From the NCBI GenBank assembly GCA_963735035.1, contig CAVTJJ010000003.1, forward strand, positions 256,001 through 320,000: a stretch of DNA of 64,000 nt, written 5' to 3'. Below the pieces are notes generated by a model. The model was not told where the DNA came from and did no database searches. It saw only the letters and a list, made by a program, of their open reading frames with translations. Position numbers and translations under genes: made by a program. The DNA comes from an uncultured candidate division Zixibacteria bacterium (GTDB lineage: Bacteria; Zixibacteria; MSB-5A5; GN15; FEB-12). This document shows, one piece after another, positions 1,240-46,623 of the stretch. Numbering within the stretch: the first letter of the stretch is position 1; every line of letters begins with the position of its first letter.

Positions 1240-1929
1240 TCACAGACAGTTATGCAGGCCCAGCGTCGGCCCGGTGATGAACAAGTAGTCGATCAGCATC
1301 GAGATATCGCCGATTGTGATGTCGTTACAAGTCGGGTTCGAACCGCCCGATTGGTTGATATCCGCCTCGGACAGACATGCAATGATACCGTCGCACGTCC
1401 CGGTGATGAATTTGGCGTCGATCAGCACCGAAATATCTCCGATAGTCGGTTCATCACCGCCCAGGCCGTTAGCGTTGCCCACACGACCCACGCAGCAACT
1501 GCCGCCGCCATTGCCAAAATCCTGCCAGAAGCCGGCAAGGCATTGTGAATTTGGCGAAGACGAAAACCCTACTGCAGTCTGACCGAGAGTGCCCGAGAGG
1601 GCATAGTTGGCGGATACCGCCTCTCCCCCTCCGCCCGAAATCACGTGCCAGTTGATCTGCTCTCCGGCCTGAGGCGCCTTCGCCACGTATGTGGCCGAAG
1701 AATCCGATTGTACTGGTTTTGCTGCTGTCGGCTCCGTCCGACTGGCTTTGGTCTCAGGGGCAGTTGTTGTAGGGGCTGTCGACGACCGTGCGTTCTCCTT
1801 CGATGGTACTACCTTGGACGTACTGGTTGCCCGCTCACCACGGCCTGATTCACGGTCGCCCGCGAACGAGACTGTACAGACAAGGGTGAGCAGCGTTGCT
1901 AACCACACAGTTGTTAGCCGTATCGTCAT
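1240..1929 (-). CDS. Small secreted protein: signal peptide, S/T/P-rich linker, 'VISGGGG...GQ...GFW' domain, C-terminal dockerin-like domain
   Basis: Hydrophobic N-terminus. C-terminal CC-x-GRVGNANG-GGDEPTIGDIS...EADINQSGG...ITIGDIS-LIDYLF duplicated Ca-binding-loop repeat. Confidence 0.85.
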   Translation of the reverse strand: MTIRLTTVWLATLLTLVCTVSFAGDRESGRGERATSTSKVVPSKENARSSTAPTTTAPETKASRTEPTAAKPVQSDSSATYVAKAPQAGEQINWHVISGGGGEAVSANYALSGTLGQTAVGFSSSPNSQCLAGFWQDFGNGGGSCCVGRVGNANGLGGDEPTIGDISVLIDAKFITGTCDGIIACLSEADINQSGGSNPTCNDITIGDISMLIDYLFITGPTLGLHNCL

Positions 1930-1985
1930 ACTTGCCTCTCTGCAAATTACTCTCTAGATACCTATTTCAAGGCGATGGAACTGAA

Positions 1986-3455
1986 TTATTGCTTGTCTGA
2001 CATGCCTTGCGCTTGCTGTTGGCGCATCTTGTTCATCTTTGCTTCGGCCAGTTCCCTCTTCAGCCTTTCGGCTTCGGCAGTGGCTTTGGCCGCTCTTAGT
2101 TCAAGATCGCGCAGATCGACTTGATACATGGTCTCGGATGAACCCTCCGCACCCGGACCCGTCGGAACTGACACCGCTTCGGCGTTATCGAACCGGCCAG
2201 CCTCGCCCGGAGGCACCAGGGCTACTACGGATCCGTAGGATGTGGGGTAGTAAGTGGCGGTCAAGATCGAATGTTGAGCATATACCGACGCCCCGGCTCC
2301 GAGAGGTGCATTGAGTCTGGACTCGAGCCTGAACGTGTACGATCCTGCTACAGGTTCATAATAGATTCGAGTACATGTTGGTGAGTAATGGTTAGGACTC
2401 AAATCAACAGAACCTGCAATCAAGACTTCACTGCAATAGGCGGGAAGGGTGAATCCGCCTGCGGTTTCATCGATCTGAAGAAATACTCCGTTGGCTCCAA
2501 TTGTACCGATGAGCCACAATCGCCTGATCTGTCCCTGCAATTCGATGTATCCCGGTGCCGGGATTGTAATTGTCACCGTCACAATATCTTGCATGGTTGT
2601 GGACACATAGATTCCATTGGGATTGTAGTTGCTGGCAATCCCCGGCTCATCGAGAATCTCACGGGAGTCAATGGCGTTATCTGGAAGAATGACCGATGAA
2701 TCTCCGGTGACGCTTGCGTCCAGCCACGTGTTTACCGATCCCGCGCTATTGAACAGCATAAGGTTGCCGCCACTGCCGCCGCCCCCCAGTTTGCCACCGG
2801 ACAGATAGGCGCCTCCGTATGTCGTCGAGGAGCTATCGGCCAATTGTAATTCACCAGCGCCTGCTTCACGCAAGATAACTCTTCCCGCACCGTCTGATCC
2901 ATTCATCTGAATCATCCGGTTGTTTGGATCAACCACCACCCGGTCGGTACCTCCCGATTGCCATTGGCTGGCGACCCCATCGTGCAACGTTGTTCCGGTC
3001 ATCGTCCCGCCTGACAGCGGCAAGTAGCCGGGCGCGGAGGCGACAGAATTGGCCTGATCAGCCCTGAAGGCATACGGGACCGAGGTAAGCCGGGTTCTCG
3101 GTGTCATCTCTGTTTGGGATTCAACAGCAATTCCCAGCCATCGGTTCGGCGCGCTGAAGATTGCCGGATCTAGAGCCATCATAGGAGCCTGACCCAGGAT
3201 CACTGAGAACAGACCACTAGCCGTGACAATCTCGACCTTGTCGGACGTCCATAACAGATCGCCGCCTGTAGAATCAGACCAAATGGAGAACACGCAGGGA
3301 TAGCCACCATCCCTTACCGGCTGACCGGCAGGATCGGTCAGACGGCCCTGGTACGACATCGTAGATGGCACCGTCGGCGGAGCAGCCATTGTTGACGAGG
3401 TCACAAGGACCAAGATCACGGCGGTTAACAGTCTAGTGCGCCAATCAAAGTTCAT
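1986..3455 (-). CDS. Secreted fibre/adhesin-like protein with N-terminal 'PSTMSYQGRLTD' domain and C-terminal coiled coil
   Basis: Signal peptide. N-terminal ~110 aa is homologous to 16577..18478 (MSYQG...GxFSVILG...PRTRLTSVPY). Heptad-like C-terminal tail. Confidence 0.8.
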   Translation of the reverse strand: MNFDWRTRLLTAVILVLVTSSTMAAPPTVPSTMSYQGRLTDPAGQPVRDGGYPCVFSIWSDSTGGDLLWTSDKVEIVTASGLFSVILGQAPMMALDPAIFSAPNRWLGIAVESQTEMTPRTRLTSVPYAFRADQANSVASAPGYLPLSGGTMTGTTLHDGVASQWQSGGTDRVVVDPNNRMIQMNGSDGAGRVILREAGAGELQLADSSSTTYGGAYLSGGKLGGGGSGGNLMLFNSAGSVNTWLDASVTGDSSVILPDNAIDSREILDEPGIASNYNPNGIYVSTTMQDIVTVTITIPAPGYIELQGQIRRLWLIGTIGANGVFLQIDETAGGFTLPAYCSEVLIAGSVDLSPNHYSPTCTRIYYEPVAGSYTFRLESRLNAPLGAGASVYAQHSILTATYYPTSYGSVVALVPPGEAGRFDNAEAVSVPTGPGAEGSSETMYQVDLRDLELRAAKATAEAERLKRELAEAKMNKMRQQQAQGMSDKQ

Positions 3456-3677
3456 GCGGTCTCCTGTTTCGATCTTCCGAGAATCGTGCTAGGCATTTCA
3501 AGTATTATCGTCACCCGGCCCCGCAAGGGCCATGGAAAGGGCGTAACAAACCCCGAAAATAGCGTCTGGACGCCGGTTTCGGGCATATTCGAAGGGGATA
3601 TTACGGAGATTGTATGGACAAATACACTCCAAATTGCCCGTTTTGTCAAGATTTGACTGAAACTGGAGTACCGGGAC

Positions 3678-3712
3678 AGAAAAGCCTCCGGATCGGGTGG
3701 ATCCGGAGGCTT
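3678..3712 (-). terminator. Intrinsic terminator after the beta-propeller gene
   Basis: AAGCCTCCGGATC / GATCCGGAGGCTT stem followed by TTTT on the minus strand. Confidence 0.75.
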
Positions 3713-3753
3713 ACATTGAGTATCAACGTAATTGGTGCAGTGAACCCACTGCC

Positions 3754-6336
3754 TCAGAGACAATTCGGCAGGCCCATCGACGGACCTGTAATAAACAAGT
3801 AGTCGATCAATACAGATATATCGCCGATAGTCACATCGTCACAAATTGGTCCGGTGCCGCCGGACTGATTGATATCCGCCTCTGAAATACATGCAATGAT
3901 GTTATCACAAACACCCGTAATGAACTTGGCATCGATCATGGCGCTGACATCGCCGATCGTGGGTTCATCGCCGCCTGTGCCGTTGGCATCGCCAACCCGA
4001 TTGACACAACAGTTGGACTGACTCTTGGACCATTGCGCCAGGTCGATAGAGAGCTTGTTCCCAGCAATCGTGAAGCTCCCCCCCACTATCAATTCACCGT
4101 TGTACTCAGTCAGCGCATTAAGATACAAGGCGTCTACTCCCGATCCCAAGGCTGACCAGGTACGTCCGTTCCAAGAGGCTATCCTTCTAGCCGCTGCTTC
4201 CCCTGCCACGGAGAACCATCCCCCCGCAATCAGTTTTCCATCGTACACTGACAGGACTTCGACATCAGCATTGACCCCTGCTCCCAGCGGTGACCAGTTG
4301 GTCCCATCCCAGAGTGCTATCTTGCTCGCCGCCACAGTGTCGGCCTGTGTAAACCAACCACCGGCAACTAGTTTCCCGTCGTACACGGTCAGGGCATAGA
4401 CGGGGTTGTCCATTCCCCTCCACGATCCCAGCGACGACCAACTGCTACCGTCCCAGGACGCAATTCCGTGAACCTCAACACCGCCGGCGTTTACGAACTC
4501 ACCCCCTGCAATCAATTTCCCATCGTACACAGCCACGGCATAGACGTTGTTATCCATCCCGAATCCGAACCCCAACCAGGACCAACTGCTCCCATCCCAG
4601 GCCGCAACCCGGTAGGCGGGCACTCCGCCGGCCGTTGTGAACGAGCCCCCCGCTATCAATTTGCCATCGTATATGGTGAACGATAAGACCTGACTGCCCA
4701 TCCCCGACCCCAGCGTGGACCAACTGCTCCCATCCCACGACGCTATGTTGTCTGCCCAAACACTGCCGGCCATTGAGAACCGGCCTCCCGCTATCAGTTT
4801 CCCGTCGTACACAGTCATATCAAAGACATAGTTATTGATCCCTGAACCCAACGGCGACCAGACACTTCCATCCCAGGATGCTACTCTATTCGCCATCACG
4901 CCGCCGATCATTGTGAAACTGCCGCCTGCAATCAGTTTTCCGTCGTAAACGGTCAAGGAAAAGACAGTCCCATTCATCCCCGATCCCATTCGTGACCAGT
5001 TGCTACCATCCCAGGACGCTATCCTGGTCGCCGGCACGCCGCCGGCCTTTGTGAACCATCCCCCCGCTATCAGCTTCGTGTCGTACACGGTCAAGGCGTG
5101 GACAGAAGGAGTACCTCCTTCCATTTCCATCCCCGACCCCAACGACGACCAACTGCTCCCATCCCAGGATGCTATCCTGCCTGCTGCCAGGCCATCGGCC
5201 GTAAAGAAATCTCCACCAGCGATCAGTTTCGCGTCATACACAGTCAAGCTAGAGACAACGCCATATTCATTCATCCCCGCCCCCAACGGCGACCAATTGG
5301 CCCCGTCCCAGGACGCCACATTGACAGCAGCTACGCCACCGGCCGTTCTGAAGAAGCCCCCCACTATCAGCTTGTTATCATAAACAGTCAGGGCTTCGCC
5401 CCGTGGGTATTCTCCACCTATCCCCGCCCCCAATGGGGTCCAACTGCTCCCGTCCCAGGAAGCAATACTGTTCGCCGCCACACCACCGGCTGTGAAGAAA
5501 TATCCGCCTGCGATCAGCTTTCCGTCATACACGGTCAGGGAGAGGACAGGGCCGTTCATGCCCGACCCTAGCGGCGACCAACCGCTACCATCCCATGCTG
5601 CAATATTGCTCACCGCTACACCACCGGCCGTCGCGAATACGCCTCCGGCTATGAGTTTCCCGTCGTACACGGTCAAGGACAAGGCATAAGGTTCCTGTAA
5701 AACCGTTCCTCCTATCCCCGACCCCAGCGGTGACCAACTGCTCCCATCCCATGACGCTACTAAGCTGGCCTCGACACCACCGGCTTTAGTGTATTCCCCC
5801 GCCGCTATCAGGTTACCATTGTACACAGTCAGCGCGTTGACACTCGTGCAGACTTCGTCTCCCATTACTGACCCCAAAGAAGACCATGATACACCATCCC
5901 AGGCTGCGATTTTGTCGGCCATTTCACCGCCAGCCGCCTGAAAATATCCGCTGACTACGAGCCGTCCATCGTATACAATTGCATCCGTGACACCGGCGTC
6001 AACGCCGGCAAGCGATGGTGAGATACTGTTATCCCAGAAGATGTCATCCTGGCTGTCGGCTGTTGCAGCTGCTCCGGAAGTTCGGAATATCGGCCGGCCC
6101 GTGGCCGGGTCGATGACCGATTCGAGGCCTGCCATTTCCAGCGATCCCTGATAGCCGGAACGCCGCACCGCCTCCAGATCGAAACGTCCGTCAGGAGCGA
6201 GAAATTCGCTGACACTTCTGCCTTTGGGCGTTCCCACCTCAAGTGCCGATTTGTCCTCAGCCCGTACGTGCGACACTCCTGCAATGAGCCCACACAACGC
6301 TATTGCTGCGATACACAACCAAGAGAATTGTTTCAT
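3754..6336 (-). CDS. Secreted 14-repeat beta-propeller protein (probably 2 x 7 blades) with C-terminal dockerin-like domain
   Basis: ATG at 6336 with AGGAGG RBS, then signal peptide MKQFSWLCIAA. Fourteen ~47-aa repeats LTVYDGKLIAGGxFxxAGGVxAxxIASWDGSSWSxLGSG, then dockerin-like tail. Confidence 0.9.
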   Translation of the reverse strand: MKQFSWLCIAAIALCGLIAGVSHVRAEDKSALEVGTPKGRSVSEFLAPDGRFDLEAVRRSGYQGSLEMAGLESVIDPATGRPIFRTSGAAATADSQDDIFWDNSISPSLAGVDAGVTDAIVYDGRLVVSGYFQAAGGEMADKIAAWDGVSWSSLGSVMGDEVCTSVNALTVYNGNLIAAGEYTKAGGVEASLVASWDGSSWSPLGSGIGGTVLQEPYALSLTVYDGKLIAGGVFATAGGVAVSNIAAWDGSGWSPLGSGMNGPVLSLTVYDGKLIAGGYFFTAGGVAANSIASWDGSSWTPLGAGIGGEYPRGEALTVYDNKLIVGGFFRTAGGVAAVNVASWDGANWSPLGAGMNEYGVVSSLTVYDAKLIAGGDFFTADGLAAGRIASWDGSSWSSLGSGMEMEGGTPSVHALTVYDTKLIAGGWFTKAGGVPATRIASWDGSNWSRMGSGMNGTVFSLTVYDGKLIAGGSFTMIGGVMANRVASWDGSVWSPLGSGINNYVFDMTVYDGKLIAGGRFSMAGSVWADNIASWDGSSWSTLGSGMGSQVLSFTIYDGKLIAGGSFTTAGGVPAYRVAAWDGSSWSWLGFGFGMDNNVYAVAVYDGKLIAGGEFVNAGGVEVHGIASWDGSSWSSLGSWRGMDNPVYALTVYDGKLVAGGWFTQADTVAASKIALWDGTNWSPLGAGVNADVEVLSVYDGKLIAGGWFSVAGEAAARRIASWNGRTWSALGSGVDALYLNALTEYNGELIVGGSFTIAGNKLSIDLAQWSKSQSNCCVNRVGDANGTGGDEPTIGDVSAMIDAKFITGVCDNIIACISEADINQSGGTGPICDDVTIGDISVLIDYLFITGPSMGLPNCL

Positions 6337-6671
6337 GCAGACAACCTCCTCTGACGAGCGGTTAGCTATAACGCGGCGACCGCGATCCTGATTCGACTTT
6401 TGGTATAATGGCGGTACCCAAGACAAACCCGATTCCCGAATTCGCGTCCCAAAGGTTGACTTGACAATGTTGTGCGACGGATAGAATAGTTTACGTTGCC
6501 AATTTACTCCACACAACCCTTCGTGTCAACTGATTTGTGGTTTACCGTATAGATGAGTTAGCGTCCAACGGAATTATCGAGGCAACAATTCGTTATTACA
6601 CACTAACACAGATGCACTTGTTTGTTGGCTCCTATTCTGGTCATAGCCGGAGATGACTGGATCACAAACGA

Positions 6672-6705
6672 GAAGCGGCCATCCCAAGGACGGGATGACC
6701 GCTTC
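6672..6705 (-). terminator. Hairpin, probable terminator after the 6727..9198 gene
   Basis: GAAGCGGcCATCCC / GGGATGaCCGCTTC inverted repeat just past the stop codon. Confidence 0.55.
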
Positions 6706-6726
6706 ACACTCGGGCCATTTGCATTA

Positions 6727-9198
6727 TCACAAACAGTTGGACAAACCCATCGACGGACCGGTAATAAACAAGTAGTCGATCAGCATCGAAATATCTCCAA
6801 TCGTAACGTCATCACAAATCGGAGCAGCGGCGCCAGACTGATTGATATCCGCCTCTGAAAGGCAGTTCAGGATTCCGTCGCAAGTCCCGGTAATGAATTT
6901 GGCGTCGATCATGGCGCTGACATCGCCGATCGTGGGTTCATCGCCGCCCGCACCGTTGGCATCGCCGACTCGAGACACACAACAATTGTCAGGCGATCCG
7001 ACCTCAGTCAATTCACGAAGTAATCCTATCTGAATACCCCGCATCGAGGCTGGATTGTCGAGCGACTCGGAGATCCAGATCGGCGGTTGACTCAAACTGT
7101 AAATCTGGTTGGGATCATTCAGAGAAGCGGTATTGACCCGAGTCCACGAACAGTTGCCTTCCCCTCCATACGCGCTGTCGGTGGCGGCGTTGATCAACGT
7201 TATCGCGTGGTGGTTGTCGGTGATCTTCGCGTTGTGATCGCGTTCCGTTTGGATTCGAAGATATGTCGTTTGAATCAGCGGCATAAAGCGGTCAGCTTCG
7301 CGCTCCGACCAGAAAGCCACATCGGCCGTGTCGTGTGGCACGTGACCGCCGTTGATCTGCGCCGTGGCGGTACGGTTGTGCGGCCCTTCGAAATCGAGGA
7401 GAAAGTGTAGCGGCGGATCATCGGGGTATCGCGCGAGCACACCCGAAGCCATCGTGATGCCGTAGGACTGCGAGAAAATACCTATACGTGCCGGATCGAC
7501 TTCCGGCAAACCGGACAGAAACCGGGTCACCTGGCGAAGGCCATCCTGCTGGATGTACCCGTCGTAATCCTCAGTTGTGTACGATCCGCTGTCGGTGGAA
7601 AGCCCTCGACCGTCGGGATCAAAGTGCATAACGATGAATCCGGAATCAGCCACGGCCGCGGCTAGTCCTGACAAATCGAAGCTGTTTCCCGCCCCTGAAC
7701 CGCCCGGCACCATTACCACTCCGGGATAAGTACGAAGCGGATCGAAACCGGTCGGTCGATGAATATGGGCGACTATATCAATTCCACTGGAAGGATTGAA
7801 TAACAGGATCATCTGAGTACCGGCCACTGCGGGCGGACCGACTTCCAGCACCACCGGTGTACTCCCGACATTTATCTGATCAGCCACGGCGGGTAAGATG
7901 ACTCCGGTCTTCACGTTTGTTGCGATCAGGGAGGCGCCTGTCTGCCCCATCGCGGTAAGAATGCCGCCAAGGTTAACAATATCAGCGCCGTCGGTTTCTC
8001 GAAACAACAGCAGCACCGACTTGTTAGGATCGGAGGGATTCTGCGCCGCGTCTCTCAGCATTTCAAAGACTCTTACACCGGGTACGCCGAGTGTGCCGGT
8101 TCGTTCTTCGATGACGCCACAATCTCTTAACGCCCAGGCGAGGTATGGAAACTGATCGGTCGCGGTGTCAGTGGGTAGTGGCTCTCCCCCGGCCGCCTCA
8201 TAGTCTTCGAAGACTCCCTTGAGTTCATGATCGTTGACGAAGCGTGCGATGACGTTACCCCGTGGGGAAGTCTGGCTGGTGAAATTGTCATGCATCCAGG
8301 TGAGCAGGTCGGCGATACCGGCGGCATAAGTCTCCGTCGAGCGGCCGCCATGATTGCACCATCCCCAGCTCCACACTTGCTGCGGCAAACTAAGCCGCTC
8401 CCGCTCCAGCCATTCCATGTAGACGAGCAGAAATTCCTTTTTCAACTGTGGAAATCTGAGATCGAAGAAGATCCGCCGCTCATCCGGACCGTGATAACTG
8501 GCCTCGCCCGGCTGCGGGAAATGCGGATAGGTGACTATACCGTCTGTCCTCCGTTCGACGGTCCAAACAATGTGCTGTCCCCGAGGTATCGGAACCATTT
8601 CCTCAATAGCTCTAAGATTATACCCCAGGTCTACCCAACAGGTGGGGCATTCATAGTGCGACTCGCCGTGCCAGAGCTGATCCGCACCTACCAGACTCGC
8701 CACCAGGTCATGGTTGTCGTGCCAGTGCTGTTCAATTTCGGCTTGTGAAGCCACAAGTTTGTAAGTCCACTGGGTAGGGTCCGCCCCCTGTAGAAACGAG
8801 TGAGAGTGCACTCCCAAATTGTGTCCGGCGGCAAGATGAGCCGCCCAGAGGGCGCTGTCGCCTTCCATTTTCGCCCGGGCAGCATAGGCGCCGCTCATCT
8901 GAAAAGAAATGCGGGCGCCGACCGATTCCGCCTGGCTCATTTCCCACTCAAGCTGACTTTTGGTGTAGTTGTACCTGGCGGTAGTTGTTGAATACGTCGT
9001 CCCCTCAATCAAAGGCGGCATATAATCGATGACGCTTTCGACCTCAACGTGATTGACATACAGGATATGAATCGGCATCTGCGCCGCAGCCTGCCGTTGT
9101 GCCCCCTCCGCCGAGCCGAGGGTGATCGCTACGGTCGCACAAATCGCGACCAGCCATGTGAATACTCTGGTAGAACAGTTCACTTCACCTCCGAACAA
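6727..9198 (-). CDS. Secreted two-domain protein: deacetylase-like metal-binding N-domain, alpha/beta-hydrolase domain, dockerin-like tail
   Basis: Signal peptide (true start probably GTG ~9183). NHVEVE and GVHSH motifs. VMVPGG, FDPDGRG and RIGIFSQSYG nucleophile elbow. Dockerin-like C-terminus. Confidence 0.8.
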   Translation of the reverse strand: MFGGEVNCSTRVFTWLVAICATVAITLGSAEGAQRQAAAQMPIHILYVNHVEVESVIDYMPPLIEGTTYSTTTARYNYTKSQLEWEMSQAESVGARISFQMSGAYAARAKMEGDSALWAAHLAAGHNLGVHSHSFLQGADPTQWTYKLVASQAEIEQHWHDNHDLVASLVGADQLWHGESHYECPTCWVDLGYNLRAIEEMVPIPRGQHIVWTVERRTDGIVTYPHFPQPGEASYHGPDERRIFFDLRFPQLKKEFLLVYMEWLERERLSLPQQVWSWGWCNHGGRSTETYAAGIADLLTWMHDNFTSQTSPRGNVIARFVNDHELKGVFEDYEAAGGEPLPTDTATDQFPYLAWALRDCGVIEERTGTLGVPGVRVFEMLRDAAQNPSDPNKSVLLLFRETDGADIVNLGGILTAMGQTGASLIATNVKTGVILPAVADQINVGSTPVVLEVGPPAVAGTQMILLFNPSSGIDIVAHIHRPTGFDPLRTYPGVVMVPGGSGAGNSFDLSGLAAAVADSGFIVMHFDPDGRGLSTDSGSYTTEDYDGYIQQDGLRQVTRFLSGLPEVDPARIGIFSQSYGITMASGVLARYPDDPPLHFLLDFEGPHNRTATAQINGGHVPHDTADVAFWSEREADRFMPLIQTTYLRIQTERDHNAKITDNHHAITLINAATDSAYGGEGNCSWTRVNTASLNDPNQIYSLSQPPIWISESLDNPASMRGIQIGLLRELTEVGSPDNCCVSRVGDANGAGGDEPTIGDVSAMIDAKFITGTCDGILNCLSEADINQSGAAAPICDDVTIGDISMLIDYLFITGPSMGLSNCL

Positions 9199-9404
9199 AA
9201 GAAGTTCAGAAACAAAACATGTTCAATTCGAGTCTCTTGAGAGCGAAGAGAACCGATACGACTTTACAAACACCGTCTCGTCAGCCAGCCCGATTACCGG
9301 CCATCAATTGATCAATCAGAAGACATGCAAGTGGTGCGCATATTCGCGACCGCAGGCGGTGTCTTTGTCATCGCCAGGGTCGCTTATGTTCTCAATACAG
9401 TGCT

Positions 9405-9433
9405 AATATAGACCAAAAAGATCATTACTGCAA
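9405..9433 (-). promoter_or_regulatory. Putative sigma70 promoter for 6727..9198
   Basis: Minus strand TTGCAG-17 nt-TATATT. Confidence 0.45.
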
Positions 9434-9443
9434 GAATTGATAC

Positions 9444-9479
9444 AAAAAAGTCTCCGGACCAACTTGATCCGGAGACTTT
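9444..9479 (-). terminator. Intrinsic terminator after the 9521..10975 gene
   Basis: AAAGTCTCCGGA / TCCGGAGACTTT stem with a T6 tract on the minus strand. Confidence 0.8.
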
Positions 9480-9520
9480 CTCAATAGTATGACAGACTCA
9501 ATTACACTTCTACATAGATA

Positions 9521-10975
9521 TCACGGACAGTCGGGAAGGCCTCGCGCAGGTCCTGTGATAAACAAATAATCGATCAGCGCCGAAATGTCGCCGATCGTTA
9601 TGGCGTCACAAGTAGGAATGACGCCACCGGACAAGTTTATATCTCCCTCGCCCAAACACACTATATTGGTGCCGATACCGGAGGAGATACAGGTACCGGT
9701 GATGAACTTGGCGTCGATCATCACGCTGACGTCACCTATAGTTGGTTCATCGCCACCTGTGCCGTTGGCATCGCCAACCCGGCCCATACAGCAGTTGATC
9801 TTGACGGAGACCGGAGCGGACCAGGCTGTTTCTGCTCCAAACGCATCTTTGACCTTGACCTTGACCTCGTAATTGCCAAAATCAGTCCACGAGTGCGAGG
9901 CGAGTGCCGAAGCTCCGGAATTGTATGGGCCGAGCCAGCCGGTGTTCTGACCATCACCCCAGTCCCACCAATAGTATATCATGTTGGCTTCGGGATCGGT
10001 GGCCTCTGAAGCGAATTGCATGTTCTGAAGTGGCAGCCTTTGTCCGCCGCCCATCACTATCGAAGGAGTTGGCGGAGCGGTATTGGCCGGCACGCCGTTG
10101 CCCACTGCAACATGGACTCTGACTTGATTGTTGCCCAGCCAGTCAAGGGTGGTAAGCATGTCGAGCGCCGGCACAACTCGTTGGCCAGACGCTATGATTT
10201 CCGGTTCATAATACGGAACCAGCACATCCTCCGGGTACTCCGCGGGAGCGCCACCCATTTTGGCCCTATAGCCGGCATCTATGTACACGCAGGGGAAAAC
10301 CGTCATGTAAGCCGATTGAATGCGGGCATGGGCCATCGGGTTAACGTCATCGACCATGGCCACGTAGAACATCGGATACTCACCTGACTGATCTATCACG
10401 TGGAGCGCGGACCGCGCTCTTGTGCAGTATGGTCACCAGGTGGCCGTTGCTTCCTCGATAAAAATCGGGTGCGTATATGGCGAAGTCGCCTGGCTGTGCC
10501 CCACTACACCGGGCGTAGCGGCCGCTGCGACATCGGCGTAGCGAGCCTGAAAATACCGTCCGTTGGGCGGATCGGCGTCAGTCAGTACCGTCTGCGACCT
10601 GAACGCCACACCAATCGCCTTAAGGTTGTCCGGGAAGATCTCACCTATGGCCGTCGTGGAGGCGTCCCACGTGCCGGTCAGGTAGACCTTTTCGCCATCG
10701 AGCAGGTTGAAGTTTGAGACCAGAGGAAAGTCAAGAAAACCGTTCTGATAGAAGTCGTCGTTTAGATCGGTCCACCGGGCCATCGGCTCTACGAGGAACA
10801 CTCGTATGGTCCCGGAATAGCTTGCCTCACCATTATCCGGGGCGAGCAAAGGAGGGTTGTCTGGAGGCGTTCCGGGGTTATCGGAACCGCTTTCACAAAC
10901 TTTCCACTCTCCCGCTGTCGCCACAGATACAAAAATGAGGATCAAGCCTACGATTAGTAGGGGGTAACGTTGCAT
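9521..10975 (-). CDS. Probable selenoprotein (484 aa, U181): signal peptide, Omp28/thioredoxin-like domain with UxxC, PKD domain, dockerin-like tail
   Basis: ORFs 10433..11071 and 9521..10399 are in the same frame. The junction reads IEEATATW-TGA-PYCTRARSALHVIDQSG. ATG at 10975 (MQRYPLLIVG). PKD motif YWWDWGDG...SHSW..GNYEVKVKVKD. Hairpin follows the TGA. Confidence 0.88.
10403..10419 (-). promoter_or_regulatory. SECIS-like hairpin 13 nt after the in-frame UGA at 10433-10435
   Basis: mRNA GAGCGC-GGUCC-GCGCUC, a perfect stem with a GGUC-containing loop. Confidence 0.7.
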
Positions 10976-11135
10976 CGGATCCTTTCGCGTACTCTTTGCG
11001 GAGTTTACCTGTCCTCTTGAATCACATGTCGATAATATACCAAAATAGTCGCAAAATGCAACATCCGACATTGGTCATCAGCCATCGGGTTATTGAGGAT
11101 AACCAACCGAAGGAATAGATATCCGCAACCGCGCT

Positions 11136-12380
11136 TCAGAATCGAACCGTTACCCCGGCGTTCACTGAGAAGTCATCGTATTTGTAAACTAGGACGGTCG
11201 AGTTGTTGTCAGTGTAGTCGGCCTGGATACTTGGCTCCAAAGTTACCCCGTTACCCATTTGAAGGGGGCACTGAACTTTGATATCGAACCGCCGACGCCA
11301 ATCGGTGCGGTCCTGAGCGTACAGCAGGCTCACGGTCGATCTCAGCTCCTGAAGAAATCCGAATGGCTTTAGCTCTCGTTCTACGGTGCGCAGGTGTTCC
11401 CGCTCCCAGAACCCGGCCGAGAAGGTGGTAATCAGTCGGGGAATCAAATATGTCTTCAACTTCAGGACGACGGCCTGTCCGGCGAAATCGCCCAACCAGG
11501 GCGATAGATAGCCGGTCGAGTATCCGTAGATAACCGCATTCTTGTCATGATCGAGAAACTGCCGGTTCGAATAAGTCAACGCCAGACCGGTCTTCCTCCC
11601 GAGAGATCGGGAGATGCGCGGCGAAATGTAGAATGATCTAAGTCGGTCAGTAAGAAGGATCGAATACTGTTCGCCGGGAAGGATTTCGGCACGGGTCACC
11701 ATCGTGTCTGGAACACCGAACTCCGGGACGCCCTTGATTAATTTCAAGGGATTTACGTACTGGTACCTTCCGGTCGAGTATCCCAACTCCAGATCTATAG
11801 CGTACGAGCCAAACAGGGTCGTATTGGCTCCAGCCGTGACATCCATTTTCTTTCGGTCAATTACACCATCGATCTTGTACTGCGTGGATGATAGTGAAAG
11901 TCCCGCCCGCAATTGCGTTCGGGAACTCAGGCGGTAGCCCACGCCGAAGGTACCGTCATATACGTCGCCGGTGATTTCATTGGGGTTTAGAGAGTTCGAA
12001 CTCGCGGTGGTATGGTGATACCGACGCTTCTTGAAATTGCCTTCGAGGTAGGTCGAGATACGCGACGAATCGCGGAACGGTATGATCGTCAAGCCGCCGC
12101 CGTAGACCAGGTTGCTTAGATTGATGAACTTGCTGTAGTACTTATGCTCTACTACCAGATTCAGACGGGCAAACCTGAGCGGGTACCAGTTCGCATCAAC
12201 AGTGGAAGTGCTGTATCCGTCCTCCTTCGAGGTCGAGTCCGAAAAGAGATTGCTCGTTGAACTTGCGGACGTCGAGACTTTGACATCAAAGTTAGCGGCA
12301 TTCACCAATGGTGTGACAAAGGCGATTGTCAGGATTAAGAACAATCCGAGGAGCGCGCGGAGAGCTTTCATTAGAAACAC
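11136..12380 (-). CDS. Putative outer-membrane beta-barrel protein
   Basis: Signal peptide (start possibly 12371), alternating beta-strand pattern, C-terminal GVTVRF Bam-type signature. Confidence 0.75.
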   Translation of the reverse strand: MFLMKALRALLGLFLILTIAFVTPLVNAANFDVKVSTSASSTSNLFSDSTSKEDGYSTSTVDANWYPLRFARLNLVVEHKYYSKFINLSNLVYGGGLTIIPFRDSSRISTYLEGNFKKRRYHHTTASSNSLNPNEITGDVYDGTFGVGYRLSSRTQLRAGLSLSSTQYKIDGVIDRKKMDVTAGANTTLFGSYAIDLELGYSTGRYQYVNPLKLIKGVPEFGVPDTMVTRAEILPGEQYSILLTDRLRSFYISPRISRSLGRKTGLALTYSNRQFLDHDKNAVIYGYSTGYLSPWLGDFAGQAVVLKLKTYLIPRLITTFSAGFWEREHLRTVERELKPFGFLQELRSTVSLLYAQDRTDWRRRFDIKVQCPLQMGNGVTLEPSIQADYTDNNSTVLVYKYDDFSVNAGVTVRF

Positions 12381-12790
12381 ACTCCTCCGGCGCAGCCACC
12401 ACCAGCGCCGAGTCCCCCGCCTAAACCCAGGCCTGAGCCGAAACCGGTATCGAAGTCGAGACGATCTTCACTGACAGCCCGGGCGGCAAATTTGCGACGA
12501 CCGAAGGCGTCCTTGCAGTGGAGATGGGCCTGCATACCGACCCCGGTATTGGTGTTTGTGAACATCTGCGACACCTGAAGCTGGCCGACTGAGGCCGATA
12601 CAAAGCCGTGGCGCTCAACTTCATCGGGGATGCCGTCGGTATCGTCATCGGGGGCGTTGTCGTCGAACCCATCACCGTCACAGTCAGTGAAAACAGTCGG
12701 TCCGGAAGGAAGAACTGAGGGGGCGGAGGCAAAGACCAAAATGGCTGCCAGCCAGAATGACGCCAGAATGGCGGAAAGCTTGTAGGGCAT
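12371..12790 (-). CDS. Small secreted protein with Asp-rich DxDGDG Ca-binding loops and Gly-rich/Cys C-terminus
   Basis: Signal peptide, DCDGDGFDD..DDDTDGIPD, ends GGCAGGVCF. Stop overlaps the start of the barrel gene. Confidence 0.7.
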   Translation of the reverse strand: MPYKLSAILASFWLAAILVFASAPSVLPSGPTVFTDCDGDGFDDNAPDDDTDGIPDEVERHGFVSASVGQLQVSQMFTNTNTGVGMQAHLHCKDAFGRRKFAARAVSEDRLDFDTGFGSGLGLGGGLGAGGGCAGGVCF

Positions 12791-12887
12791 CGGCGATTTC
12801 TTTCTAAACCAGATCGTTATCGTCTCAGGGCCACAAGCGTCTAATCTACGTCAATTCTGTGCGTTCTGTCAATATGCGAACTGGTCG

Positions 12888-14441
12888 CTACAAACATGCC
12901 GGCAGGCCCATAGATGAGCCGGTTATAAACAGATAATCGATCAGGATTGAGATGTCGCCGATCGTAATATTGTCACACGTGGGGTTTGATCCTCCCGACT
13001 GGTTTATGTCTGCCTCGAGTAGACACCCTATGATACCATCACAAGAACCAGTGATAAACTTGGCGTCGATCAGCACGCTGACATCGCCTATGGTTGGTTC
13101 ATCATCTCCGCTGTTGTTGGAGTCGCCAACCCTGCCGACACAGCATCCCACCTGGCATTGCCCGGCCTCACCGTAAACCCAGAATGCCGGATATTTGGTC
13201 ATGCCAAGAACGGCGGCATCATAACAGACCCCGGAAGGCTGAGTCCTGATCCAGTTCTCGCAGGCCCCGGCGGTGGGACTATTGAGTTCCCGTCCGGGCC
13301 CCGGAGCCCCGGAGTGATGGAATTCCAGCCCGATGAAAAACGGCTGGTCGACGCAGCATTGACCGTCCGAAAACTGAAATTGACTGGGAACGGAATCGTT
13401 CCCGGTCGCCGAGGTCGTAAACCGAAATAGCTCCACCCCGGGGCCATCACACGAATCCCCGGCCGGAATGATGTCGTAAACGACGATATCCACGTCCTGC
13501 GTCGCGGTATTTCCTCCAAACATGAACCGGAAACCACCAAGTTCGAAGGGATATGGAGAACTACCGCAATCTACTGCCGGATTGTAGAAGGTGTACAGCC
13601 CTTCACCTGCCACAAAACCGCTCAGAAAGACCCAGGAGTTGTCTCCGGTTGTGTTAGTCATGACACAACTGTAGACCGGAGTGCACGGATTGGGATCACA
13701 GTCGGTGTTGTCACCCATGTAGGTTCCTCCCTCCGCTGCACATTCGGCCTGGGTGCTGATCGAGCAAGTACCGAACGGATCGCAGCAGGCGCCCGGTACC
13801 CGACAAAGCCCCGTCTGACCGTCAATCCAGAATGCCGGATAATAGGCGAAGCCGAAATTGATGGCATCGATGAAACTTCCGCCGGTCAGGATGTAGTTCT
13901 CGCATCGGTTCGCCAGAGGCGGGCTGACCGTCTGACGGGCCGGACCCGGCAGGCCGCTGTGTTGAAACTCCAGCCCCATGAAAAAGGGACCGTCGACACA
14001 AAGCGCGCCCGGTAGGAAGTTATAGAGTTGGGGAGTGGAATTGTTTCCCCGCACCTGAATCGACGTGCGAAAAAGCTCCGCGCCCGGCCCCAGGCAGGAG
14101 TCCGAGGAAATGGCATCGTAAGCAACAATGTCGACAATCACCTGACTGGCCGCTCCGCCCATCATGAATTGGAACGAGAGGACCTCATACGGATAGGCGG
14201 CCGTCCCACAATCTTCACTCGGGTTGAAGAACGTATATATTCCCTCGCCGGACACGAACCCTGCCTGAAAGCTCCACGAGGTAGTCGAGGTCACATTGGT
14301 CATGCGGCAGGGCGCGTCAGTATTGAGAGATACGATCGGGGCGGAAGAGACAGAGCCGGTCACCAGCAGAACGATCGCAGCCGCGAAAACACGGCGCGGT
14401 ACCCTCGGACGGACATTCACATACAACGCTCTAAAGAACAC
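12888..14441 (-). CDS. Secreted Cys-rich protein with two tandem ~170-aa domains, a Cys-rich linker and a dockerin-like tail
   Basis: GTG start with GGAGG RBS. Duplicated GFVxGEGxYTFxNP...VDIVxYD...GPGxELFR...FFxGLEF...CEN...YPAFW. Linker GACC...C...CDPNPC. Confidence 0.85.
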   Translation of the reverse strand: MFFRALYVNVRPRVPRRVFAAAIVLLVTGSVSSAPIVSLNTDAPCRMTNVTSTTSWSFQAGFVSGEGIYTFFNPSEDCGTAAYPYEVLSFQFMMGGAASQVIVDIVAYDAISSDSCLGPGAELFRTSIQVRGNNSTPQLYNFLPGALCVDGPFFMGLEFQHSGLPGPARQTVSPPLANRCENYILTGGSFIDAINFGFAYYPAFWIDGQTGLCRVPGACCDPFGTCSISTQAECAAEGGTYMGDNTDCDPNPCTPVYSCVMTNTTGDNSWVFLSGFVAGEGLYTFYNPAVDCGSSPYPFELGGFRFMFGGNTATQDVDIVVYDIIPAGDSCDGPGVELFRFTTSATGNDSVPSQFQFSDGQCCVDQPFFIGLEFHHSGAPGPGRELNSPTAGACENWIRTQPSGVCYDAAVLGMTKYPAFWVYGEAGQCQVGCCVGRVGDSNNSGDDEPTIGDVSVLIDAKFITGSCDGIIGCLLEADINQSGGSNPTCDNITIGDISILIDYLFITGSSMGLPACL

Positions 14442-14640
14442 GACTCACCTCCCTGAGATTTGTACAGGCGCGATGGAACAGAGCCCCGAACGGGGCCCAC
14501 CCGCGCGGAAAGAGCGACCCTCATAGGTCGAGCGACTATCTTACTCTAATGGAATAATATACCAACGATGCCACGATTGTCAAGCTTAGAAAGGAGATAC
14601 CGCCTCTGAGAGCCAACGCGTTGTTACCGGCCACGAAGTA

Positions 14641-14699
14641 TCCCTCGAGGGCATGGCCCACAAGGGATTGATTTGGTGCGGAGGGGGGATCTGAGCCCC
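14641..14699 (-). repeat. Degenerate direct repeat of the tRNA-Leu 3' end plus downstream hairpin (att-like remnant)
   Basis: tccctcgagg..caagggattgatttggtgcggaggggggatctgagcccc aligns with tccctcgagg..caagggattgaaattggtgcggaaggggggatttgaacccc at 18605-18665. Confidence 0.8.
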
Positions 14700-14721
14700 G
14701 TAGCGACTTCGCAGAATTTCG

Positions 14722-14801
14722 TAGGGCGGAACCCCTTGGTGCCTGCTCGCTTTGGCGAGGTTCGGCCGTTCGTATCGGGACTATAAAGGTCCCGACCTAC
14801 A
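14722..14801. repeat. GTAG-type REP-like doublet
   Basis: GTAGGGCGAACC...GGTTCGGCC on the plus strand and GTAGGTCGGGAC-ctttata-GTCCCGA on the minus strand. Confidence 0.6.
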
Positions 14802-14810
14802 AGGCCGTTC

Positions 14811-15344
14811 TCACAAACAGTTCGGCAGACCAAGCGTCGGGCCGGTGACAAACAAATAGTCGATCAAGACTGAAATATCACCAATCGTGATATCTCCCGC
14901 AGTTGGATTCGCACCGCCCGACTGATTGATATCTGCCTCGGTCAGGCATGAGATCACTCCAGTATTACCCGAAATGAACAGCGCGTCGATCAAAACTGAT
15001 ATGTCGCCAATAGTTGGCTCATCACCGCCTGCGCCGTTGGCGTCGCCGACCCTGCCGACACAGCAGCCAAGCGAACCAAGAAGAGGCCAGTACCCCTGAC
15101 TGGATTGAAAGCTCGCAGACGTACCGAAGCCGGCCGCAGCCTGAGCAGCGCTCGCACTGACTTTGAAGCTGGTCGAAGTACCTACCGTTCCTCCGGATGA
15201 AATCACCTGTCGCGTAAACTTGTAATTATCAGCGAGGACAATTCCGGCAACGATGAATAAAACGAGCGCTGTGCGCCAACACAATCTGAATATCTGGTTA
15301 ATCATGCTGTCAACCTTCTTAATAGGTTCTTCTTGTACTAGCAT
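14811..15344 (-). CDS. Small secreted 'VISSGG...QGYW' protein with dockerin-like tail (paralog of 1240..1929)
   Basis: Signal peptide (start probably ~15305), RQVISSGGTVG...QGYW, and a 4-Cys dockerin variant. Confidence 0.85.
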   Translation of the reverse strand: MLVQEEPIKKVDSMINQIFRLCWRTALVLFIVAGIVLADNYKFTRQVISSGGTVGTSTSFKVSASAAQAAAGFGTSASFQSSQGYWPLLGSLGCCVGRVGDANGAGGDEPTIGDISVLIDALFISGNTGVISCLTEADINQSGGANPTAGDITIGDISVLIDYLFVTGPTLGLPNCL

Positions 15345-18638: not shown

Positions 18639-18723
18639 TGGTGCGGAAGGGGGGATTTGAACCCCCACGGATTACTCCACTACCCCCTCAAGATAGCGTG
18701 TCTACCAATTCCACCACTTCCGC
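18639..18723 (-). tRNA. tRNA-Leu(GAG)
   Basis: GCGGAAG...CTTCCGC-A-CCA acceptor stem, anticodon loop TT-GAG-GG, long variable arm, GTTCAAATC T-loop. Lies in the usual position after secG. Confidence 0.95.
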
Positions 18724-45326: not shown

Positions 45327-46205
45327 TTACTTCTTGTCGCCGGCGGGAGTCGGGTTCTTCAATTTCTTTATCTGTCCTTCAGCGTAATCCTTGTCCTCGG
45401 AGTCAGGGTAACGCTGAATGTATGATTCGAATATCGATATGGCCTGGGCGGTGTCGCCCTTCTTGACGTTCACAATCGCCTGCATCAGCAAGGCATCGCG
45501 ACCGTGAAACGTCGTAAACTCTTGCTCGATCTTCTTGTAAGCGTCGATAGCTTCGTCATATTTCTTGTCGCGACGGAGAAAATCGGCAAAGGCTATCCGT
45601 GCTTCGCCCGAGAGCGAATCGTGCAGATCGCCGGTCTCGATCACTTTGGTGTACCAGTTCTGAGCATCTGTCGCCTGACCGCGATACTTGTACTTGTCCG
45701 CAATCTGAAGATCGAGAGACCGGTCGGTAGCGGCGCTCGCCTTAGCAAGCATGTCGTTCAGAGTGCCGATACCCTTGGAAAAATCTTCGAATGTCTTGAG
45801 ATATTCCTGCGTCGGCTCATACCCTACCAGGCGGTCAACTTCCACACCGCTCTTGTTTACCAGCATTGACGTCGGAAATGCCTTGGCATAGTAACGCGCA
45901 GCGACTGCCGAATCCTTTTCGGGATTTACTCTGGCCAGAATCATCTGATTGGAGAAGAACTTGATTGTAGTATCATTTATGAACACGACCGTGTCCAGCG
46001 TCTTGCACCACGTTCACCAATCGGTGTAGAATTCGATCACCACGAATTGGCTGTCTTTAGCCGCTTTCAAGGCATCGTCGATCTGAGAGTAGTACGGCAC
46101 GTAGCCGGGCTTGGTGACCAGTGAAGTCGACGGCGTTTCGCCGGCGAGGCAAACCGTCGCAACCACTGACGTCAGCAGCAGAGTCGCAAAAATCAGAAGA
46201 CGCAT
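45327..46205 (-). CDS. Probable selenoprotein (292 aa, U64): exported thioredoxin-like domain with UxxC plus C-terminal TPRs
   Basis: ORFs 46014..46271 and 45327..45986 are in frame. The junction reads VVIEFYTDW-TGA-TWCKTLDTVVF. AFPT cis-Pro motif, signal peptide from ATG 46205, TPR-like helices. Confidence 0.9.
45980..45997 (-). promoter_or_regulatory. SECIS-like hairpin 16 nt after the in-frame UGA at 46014-46016
   Basis: mRNA UGGACAC-GGUC-GUGUUCA, a 7-bp stem with a GGUC loop. Confidence 0.65.
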
Positions 46206-46236
46206 CTCGGTTCCTTCCTGTAACCTTCGTAATTTC

Positions 46237-46623
46237 CTACTGTTTGGGGGCGTCGATCGCCTCGAAATCATCGCCGAGCACGGCCGACAGGAGTAGTTCG
46301 ACTTCCTGCCGGAACTCGCGCGGCACCATCAAATAATGTTTGTCGCCCCGGGAGGGTTTGGCGCCGGAAATCCAACCGACCCCGTTGGGCAGCGGTTGAA
46401 AAGCCGAGGACATAACGATCGAGGGGATATTGTTCGATTCCAGGAGCCCGCGCACGAGTTGCGAAGTAAGGTCTTTCTCTATCTGGCAGACTCTAATCCA
46501 GCTATCGTCCGGCGAAACCGCCGCTGCACCGGCGGGCATCTGGTCTACCAGACCGACCTTGCACTCGGGGCATATCACCATCGAAGTATCATATTCAAAT
46601 GAGCATTCAGGACAATAAGGCAT
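46237..46623 (-). CDS. Zinc-ribbon plus DUF2007-like protein
   Basis: MPYCPEC...CPEC and GLLESNNIP motifs. Confidence 0.75.
   Translation of the reverse strand: MPYCPECSFEYDTSMVICPECKVGLVDQMPAGAAAVSPDDSWIRVCQIEKDLTSQLVRGLLESNNIPSIVMSSAFQPLPNGVGWISGAKPSRGDKHYLMVPREFRQEVELLLSAVLGDDFEAIDAPKQ

Follow-up and report, generated by a model that had tools for sequence, protein, structure and literature searches.

A candidate exported selenoprotein of thioredoxin-like fold, cut in two by gene callers, in an uncultured Zixibacteria bacterium

We describe a gene on the minus strand (9521-10975) of a 64,000-nucleotide stretch of DNA from an uncultured candidate division Zixibacteria bacterium (GenBank assembly GCA_963735035.1, contig CAVTJJ010000003.1, positions 256,001 to 320,000), the whole of which is referred to below as the window. 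The gene is interrupted by a single in-frame TGA codon, and we propose, with a probability of about 0.9, that it is a genuine selenocysteine (Sec, U)-decoding gene for an exported protein with a UxxC motif in a thioredoxin fold. Four independent lines of evidence, namely the Sec machinery of the genome, the database homologs, the alternation of TGA and Cys codons across whole genomes and a hairpin resembling a selenocysteine insertion sequence (SECIS), agree in pointing to the TGA as a selenocysteine codon. Selenium incorporation, catalytic function, export and tethering are predicted properties of the product.

Under translation table 11 the minus strand carries two open reading frames (ORFs) in the same frame, 10433..11071 and 9521..10399. 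A preliminary description of this DNA, made from the sequence alone, had noted that these two ORFs are parted only by the TGA at 10433-10435, and had read EEATATW-U-PYC across it; both statements are borne out. With TGA read as U, positions 9521-10975 give one frame of 484 residues, the sole internal TGA being codon 181 and the local read-through peptide being ...FIEEATATW-U-PYCTR.... In this full-length frame the gene matches Cys-containing homologs end to end, and its MQRY start at 10975 is also used by a homolog from the same genus.

To place codon 181 in its family context, we aligned 39 family copies, that is, every copy in 30 loci (L020-L049) from 30 genomes of the phylum. In one alignment column, 21 of the 39 copies carry TGA and the other 18 carry TGC or TGT. 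This column corresponds to the first Cys of a [U/C]-x-x-C-P motif with conserved flanks (T-H-x-V-F-x-E-E-x-T-x-x-[WYS]-[U/C]-x-x-C-P), and in the non-TGA forms the aligned residue is always Cys, never Trp or Gly. With 21 copies sharing a TGA in this column and Cys codons filling it in all the others, its presence there is more than chance. The alternation between Cys and TGA in homologs, which the preliminary description had proposed as a check, is therefore found at exactly the codon 181 column. In a wider six-frame search of the phylum (201 genomes), 100 genomes gave matches at E<=1e-10, certain matches (e.g. family f16) aligning through the PKD domain only; among the matches listed, about 119 by hand count span residue 181, about 70 of these with exactly one TGA and about 49 with none.

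The 23 closest database proteins (P0002-P0024, including the C-terminal ORF of the window itself) are 266-289 aa long and span no more of the query than its C-terminal 56-59%. These stumps, left by gene callers and beginning after the TGA, confirm the earlier expectation that ORF callers would split the gene. In the full-length, more distant database homologs P0025, P0026, P0028 and P0029, the residue aligned with codon 181 is Cys. On a maximum-likelihood tree of 38 copies, which leaves out the partial copy L032_1, nine changes between Sec and Cys are needed, at least five of them forced by well-supported branches, and there are sister pairs differing in state, e.g. L022 (Cys) and L023 (Sec). 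Judged from the sequences, repeated switching of this kind is what genuine selenoprotein families typically show. Further to that, tandem paralogs are common, often two to four per locus, and mix Sec and Cys forms in loci L029, L030, L032, L033, L034, L039 and L040. The contigs of relatives from a freshwater-sediment run (records 7 and 8) cover the TGA site, and among the differences listed none falls at 10433-10435. Among the public runs listed as containing the stretch there is no RNA run.

The SECIS-like hairpin that follows the UGA (Table 1) is present in both the minimum free energy (MFE) and the centroid folds. In a gap-free alignment of the 21 TGA forms, its seven-pair helix is paired in 76.2% of cells, compared with 29-50% in controls with slid partners, and six of the seven pairs show double changes. 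Covariation in these forms amounts to 0.451 against 0.243 in shuffled alignments, with 0/500 shuffles reaching the observed value. In the 18 Cys forms, by contrast, pairing in these columns drops to 37.3% of cells, and covariation (0.125) does not differ from that of shuffled alignments (0.140; 344/500). The 52 nt after the codon fold with a mean MFE of -13.0 kcal/mol in TGA forms versus -9.7 kcal/mol in Cys forms. The rule for bacterial SECIS elements is a distance of about 16-37 nt from the UGA to the loop G. Here a stem-loop with a G/U apical loop is predicted directly after the UGA, as SelB/SECIS-dependent decoding requires.

A search of the window's own genome (96.9% complete) for Sec machinery, also proposed earlier, retrieved all of its parts. 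The genes selA (511.5 bits), selB (327.8 bits) and selD (394.1 bits, with one in-frame TGA) and a tRNA-Sec (67.6 bits) all score above their curated cut-offs; ARAGORN likewise calls a tRNA-SeC with anticodon tca, and the selA and selB frames are open under table 11. The selD gene (G000:C3:544642-545568, minus strand, locus L010) is itself a selenoprotein gene (...VACAG-U-ASKLGPG...), of a classic and well-known type, and its hairpin, with a 13-nt spacer after the UGA, a 7-bp stem and a GUU loop, has the geometry of the hairpin in the window.

Structural predictions were based on a family alignment of 36 sequences, comprising the window's protein, 31 of the 39 locus copies and four database proteins; left out were the duplicate of the window's copy, a copy containing masked bases and six that were partial or truncated. 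With this alignment the AlphaFold model of the full-length chain reached a predicted local distance difference test (pLDDT) score of 86.6, and that of residues 50-296 a score of 94.8. Family members share N-terminal hydrophobic leaders, and in the model a helix (residues 4-18) is followed by a low-confidence, disordered linker. The beta-rich N-terminal domain, in which E63, P64, R67 and W68 are nearly invariant, has no Pfam family match. The redox domain that follows is predicted in the order beta-alpha-beta-alpha-beta-beta-alpha, and is succeeded by a beta hairpin, the PKD domain and a two-helix C-terminal tail. A first strand (171-177) leads to U181..C184 at the start of the first helix (184-197), and P228 stands just before the third strand (229-232); T168, H169, U/C181, C184 and P228 are all invariant, P228 being presumably the cis-Pro opposite the active site. 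In the model, therefore, the C/U-x-x-C motif lies at the N-terminus of helix 1 after strand 1. We take the C-P-Y-C type motif and the Pro-x-x-F-x-D-G-G stretch of the family to resemble a glutaredoxin motif.

As the search with the full-length fold was swamped by PKD matches, a second model of residues 50-296 was compared with solved structures. Foldseek placed thioredoxins on top (probability 1.0, TMt about 0.6, best E 8.4e-4). A VIA-align comparison with 48,161 chains gave 50 best rows that are all of thioredoxin fold (Z 6.6-8.3), the best of them (Z 8.3) having a root-mean-square deviation of 2.2 over 101 residues. Pfam Thioredoxin and Pfam Glutaredoxin each match 2/36 family members at E<=0.01. 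The PKD domain is matched by a second Pfam model (PF00801, 28.4 bits, cut-off 23.5) besides the one given in Table 1, is found in 29/36 family members, and corresponds to PDB 4xed both by profile (E 2e-28) and by fold (TMt 0.92). The earlier reading of the protein, which had put a signal peptide before the TGA, a PKD domain after it and Sec at the leading position of UxxC within a fold of the thioredoxin type, stands in these respects: the first by eye (one basic residue, hydrophobic core, A-x-A), the second by Pfam, and the third through the Cys/TGA column, the hairpin and the machinery.

Could the two ORFs simply be two genes, a secreted protein of about 180 residues ending at the TGA at 10433-10435 and a PKD/dockerin-like protein starting from the GTG at 10397-10399? 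Table 11 yields exactly such ORFs, as gene callers annotate, and the 23 closest database proteins, the window's own included, are C-terminal pieces of that kind. However, the break would fall inside the thioredoxin fold, between the first strand and the first helix; 18/39 copies and four database homologs are continuous across it with Cys at the codon 181 position; the downstream ORFs of the callers begin at varying internal Met/Val codons within a conserved domain; and the hairpin covaries in the TGA forms only. We consider two separate genes highly improbable. Little more can be said for a pseudogene, or for an assembly or sequencing error, in which a Cys codon (TGC or TGT) turned into TGA. 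The TGA is indeed one base away from either codon, and the raw reads of this genome were not found, but TGA recurs at this position in 21 copies spread over many genera, in which the frame is intact on both sides and the domains that follow are conserved, and the genome retains complete Sec machinery. An independent run also yielded contigs of relatives that cover the site, with no difference there among those listed. This explanation appears equally far-fetched.

The UGA might also be read through without selenium, by near-cognate insertion of Cys or Trp or by a genome-wide reassignment, with a CxxC or WxxC protein as the outcome. The UGA is followed by C, and C in this position is a weak termination context in E. 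coli. At the same time, the gene itself ends in TGA, and neither selA nor selB is interrupted under table 11, from which it follows that UGA is not reassigned genome-wide. Near-cognate decoding fits poorly with the aligned residue in the non-TGA forms, which is Cys in every case and never Trp or Gly, and with a position-specific, covarying hairpin of selD SECIS geometry, which fits SelB-dependent decoding. Read-through of this kind is, in our opinion, very unlikely. Genetic codes with UGA as Trp or Gly were likewise rejected, because TGA ends the gene and the aligned residue is always Cys.

Several observations weigh against reading the gene as Sec-decoding, or against parts of that reading. 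Reads of the strain itself were not found, the single public run with a 0.06 share of sampled words representing a relative. One of the TGA copies (L048) is truncated and carries a TAA in addition, and the UPYC-T of the window's protein departs from the family consensus, CPYC-P. The 71-nt hairpin region of the window, folded alone, is no better than shuffled sequences (z -1.01, 34/200 shuffles as good), so that support for the hairpin comes from the comparison across genomes; even there, 24% of the cells in TGA forms are unpaired in a fixed register, in some TGA copies the register is shifted or the loop longer, and the fit is poor for L046 and L047. The Z of 8.3 is "middling" on the scale of the tool itself, and Pfam Glutaredoxin matches residues 177-233 below its threshold (15.4 bits, cut-off 22.9); the fold assignment therefore leans on the motif, the invariant residues and the thioredoxin fold of 50 out of 50 best rows. 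The re-reduction of a surface-tethered thioredoxin-fold protein is a further difficulty. Finally, a Pfam search of nine neighbouring ORFs gave no functional clue, one ORF having beta-propeller repeats and one a weak collagen-repeat match.

The C-terminal tail (Table 1) contains two repeats of the form D-x-N...I-G-D-[IV]-S-x-[LM]-I-D-x-x-F. Pfam Dockerin_1 (PF00404) does not match the window's protein at E<=0.1, although it matches 10/36 family members at the equivalent place (best E 9.9e-11), and the family profile matches type I dockerins in PDB, e.g. 1daq at E 6.6e-5. The tail itself matches 70 places in its own genome at E<=1e-5, this gene included, and with about 70 matches in one genome it behaves like a general sorting or anchoring tag; on sequence grounds we regard it as dockerin-like. 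Pfam cohesin has five matches in the genome, three of them barely above the cut-off (25.7-29.3 vs 24.1 bits). Of the earlier description as "dockerin-tagged", with surface display, the dockerin-like repeats remain, while the tail is below the reach of Pfam and the cohesin matches are weak; display by the tail is conjectural. Six minus-strand ORFs of the window end in this tail, about 85 residues long among them (1240..1929, 3754..6516, 6727..9198, 9521..10975, 12888..14441 and 14811..15344). Most have no Pfam family, and the 14-kb stretch 1240..15344 looks like a cluster sharing a sorting or anchoring tag.

Bacterial Sec decoding relies on SelB with Sec-tRNA(Sec, UCA), recruited by the SECIS. 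We suggest that SelB-GTP with Sec-tRNA(Sec) would bind the hairpin at 10403-10419 as the ribosome meets the UGA, leading to insertion of Sec181, and that the TGA at 9521-9523, with no such hairpin behind it, would end translation. The signal peptide would route the chain through the Sec translocon. Most likely, the product would act as an extracytoplasmic thiol-disulfide (selenosulfide) oxidoreductase, in which Sec181 would attack the disulfide of a substrate, or sulfur or selenium in some other oxidised form, and Cys184 would resolve the selenosulfide; the PKD domain and the tail would keep the enzyme at the envelope or on the cell surface. Of the exported selenoprotein with a display tag put forward in the preliminary description, the Sec reading and the signal peptide (the latter by eye) are retained, and display stays at the level of a suggestion.

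A bolder and rather doubtful idea is that the family represents a Sec thioredoxin-fold catalyst displayed outside the cell, by means of the PKD spacer and the dockerin-type tail, on a cohesin-like scaffold or on the surface, for extracellular redox chemistry. Such an enzyme would exploit the low pKa and oxidation resistance of selenocysteine. It might act on metal(loid)s, on elemental sulfur or polysulfide, or on disulfides within the many Cys-rich tails of proteins secreted alongside it, and switching between Sec and Cys among tandem paralogs could tune the chemistry to the local supply of selenium.

Table 1. Positions of the gene and of its proposed elements in the window
Feature	Position	Strand	Description
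Whole selenoprotein gene (proposed)	9521..10975	-	484 codons plus TGA stop (9521-9523); ATG 10973-10975; read-through translation
In-frame UGA, codon 181, proposed selenocysteine	10433..10435	-	plus strand reads "tca"
UGC, Cys184, resolving Cys of UxxC (proposed)	10424..10426	-	invariant in 36/36 aligned sequences
SECIS-like hairpin GAGCGCG-GUC-CGCGCUC	10403..10419	-	begins 13 nt past the UGA; 7-bp stem, GUC loop
Signal peptide (by eye), residues 1-21, MQRYPLLIVGLILIFVSVATA	10913..10975	-	one basic residue, hydrophobic core, A-x-A; then GE
Beta-rich N-terminal domain, residues about 52-155	10511..10822	-	seven strands, pLDDT >90, V-E-P-x-x-R-W motif
Thioredoxin/glutaredoxin-like fold, residues about 168-264	10184..10474	-	T168-H169, U181-P-Y-C184, P228
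PKD domain, residues 316-391	9803..10030	-	Pfam PKD_4 (PF18911), 35.6 bits, cut-off 27
Cys-rich two-repeat dockerin-like tail, residues 396-484	9524..9790	-	89 residues, seven Cys
Putative Shine-Dalgarno-like AAGGA	10980..10984	-	4 nt 5' of the ATG; read from the sequence
Intrinsic-terminator-like hairpin	about 9440-9482	-	18-bp stem, then U tract; about 40 nt past the stop

The terminator-like hairpin folds better than any of its shuffled versions (z -4.49; 0/200 shuffles fold equally well). A consensus terminator scan did not list it, owing to a mismatch with the loop/stem rule of the scan, and listed nothing between the ORF halves, in keeping with the single terminator reported earlier. The consensus scan for promoters and terminators gave one promoter-like and one terminator-like site, not above shuffles. 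Rfam over the window returned nothing at the gathering score at the TGA site; its only match is an ordinary tRNA gene at 18642-18723 on the minus strand.

Elsewhere in the window there is a second likely selenoprotein gene (45327..46271, minus strand). Its TGA at 46014-46016 lies within a 314-aa read-through ORF (...EFYTDW-U-TWC...) with a leader-like N-terminus, a Pfam Thioredoxin match of 42.9 bits (cut-off 23.5) across the TGA and C-terminal TPR repeats.

The practical consequence of these observations concerns annotation, as public databases systematically split an entire protein family of a little-studied sediment phylum. Once the Sec codon is recognised, a redox active site comes to light that would otherwise stay hidden, and the prokaryotic selenoproteome gains an entry spanning a phylum. 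With Sec placed behind a signal peptide and before a PKD domain and a dockerin-like tag, Sec chemistry in the envelope or outside the cell becomes a testable question. Sec and Cys paralogs side by side in the same loci constitute a compact natural system in which to study the advantage of Sec over Cys. The known bacterial UxxC thioredoxin-fold selenoproteins in Table 1 of a 2026 review (PMC13188914) are, in the part of that source available to us, not listed with display modules.

The nearest named family is NCBIfam NF045500, "Omp28-related selenoprotein", which equals the UxxC-containing "hypothetical protein GOS_C" in the same table (PMC13188914). GOS_C, as presented in the accessible portion of its description, has a thioredoxin-like fold, 74 Sec and 312 Cys sequences and an unknown function (PMC2398784). 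The window's protein does not match NF045500 at E<=0.1; the model matches 13/36 relatives at E<=0.01, the best at 32.4 bits against a cut-off of 200, and no member above the cut-off occurs in the window's own genome or in any of the 201 genomes of the phylum (best 83.7 bits). Nor does Pfam Omp28 (PF11551) match the window's protein at E<=0.1, one of the 36 relatives reaching E 0.0098. A profile-profile comparison (hhalign) of the 36-sequence family was made with five relatives of NF045500 that score 58-84 bits against that model and are therefore not certified members. It gave a probability of 97.6% (E 2.8e-12, 112 columns), with the match running from the T-H...E-E...C-x-x-C-P block as far as, and including, the Pro and D-G...G-G motifs. 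Our sequence comparisons thus suggest that the family is a remote relative in the Omp28-like thioredoxin-fold superfamily, outside both NF045500 and Pfam Omp28. The earlier label "Omp28-like" is tenable in this restricted sense, given the homology to sub-threshold NF045500 relatives, and not in the sense of Pfam Omp28 or of the NF045500 cut-off, neither of which is reached.

Loci L058-L062, in other genomes of the class, hold a second, related Omp28_seleno-like set (58-84 bits), with CxxC and, in some, TGA. These relatives have a CxxC redox domain near the start of the region matching the model and a ...NYPNPFN... tail, which we take to be a type IX secretion C-terminal domain; two have a long, unrelated N-terminal extension. 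The set may represent further unannotated Sec/Cys families in the phylum.

NF045500 and the window's family share UxxC in a thioredoxin-like fold, the occurrence of Sec and Cys forms, a SECIS just downstream and a sorting-type C-terminal tail, and the T-H-x-V-x-x-E-x-x-T-x-x-W-[U/C]-x-x-C-P region of the former aligns with the latter. Unlike the five sub-threshold relatives, which end in ...NYPNPFN..., the window's family has a beta-rich domain of about 120 residues before the redox domain, a PKD domain after it and a dockerin-like tail. Type I dockerins (PF00404; PDB 1daq and 2mte) are similar to this tail in having a tandem pair of calcium loop and helix at the extreme C-terminus of a secreted protein; the tail differs from them in its longer loops, its seven Cys, its roughly 70 matches within this one genome and the lack of a Pfam match at E<=0.1.

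Among Sec-containing thioredoxin-fold proteins, bacterial Sec thioredoxin (PF00085) and glutaredoxin (PF00462), both UxxC, have the status of experimentally verified selenoproteins in the table of the review, and exported members of the fold had been predicted before, namely thiol:disulfide interchange, DsbA-like and DsbG-like selenoproteins (PMC13188914, as far as available). In Sec thioredoxin and glutaredoxin, and by prediction in the window's protein, it is the nucleophilic, N-terminal Cys of CxxC, where helix 1 begins, that Sec replaces, and the fold predicted here matches solved thioredoxins. They are, however, small, cytoplasmic and reduced by thioredoxin reductase or glutathione, whereas the window's protein, at 484 residues, carries a signal peptide, a tail and three additional domains and scores below the Pfam thresholds. 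The DsbA-like, DsbG-like and thiol:disulfide interchange selenoproteins resemble it in their UxxC thioredoxin fold and presumed extracytoplasmic location, but their models give no significant match to the window's family.

The review tabulates 119 (sub)families, not one of which is listed with a PKD or dockerin module, and its available text has 0 occurrences of Omp28, dockerin and Zixibacter (PMC13188914). In the literature covered by our searches (Zixibacteria, selenoprotein, Omp28, dockerin), with subscription journals and the deep-Sep and GOS supplements outside its scope, the family is undescribed. The preliminary description had called the architecture unusual, and this is correct for the combination of domains and not for a UxxC thioredoxin-fold selenoprotein, which is familiar. 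Compared with the systems above, what is new here is the domain architecture, while the UxxC thioredoxin-fold selenoprotein as such is already known.

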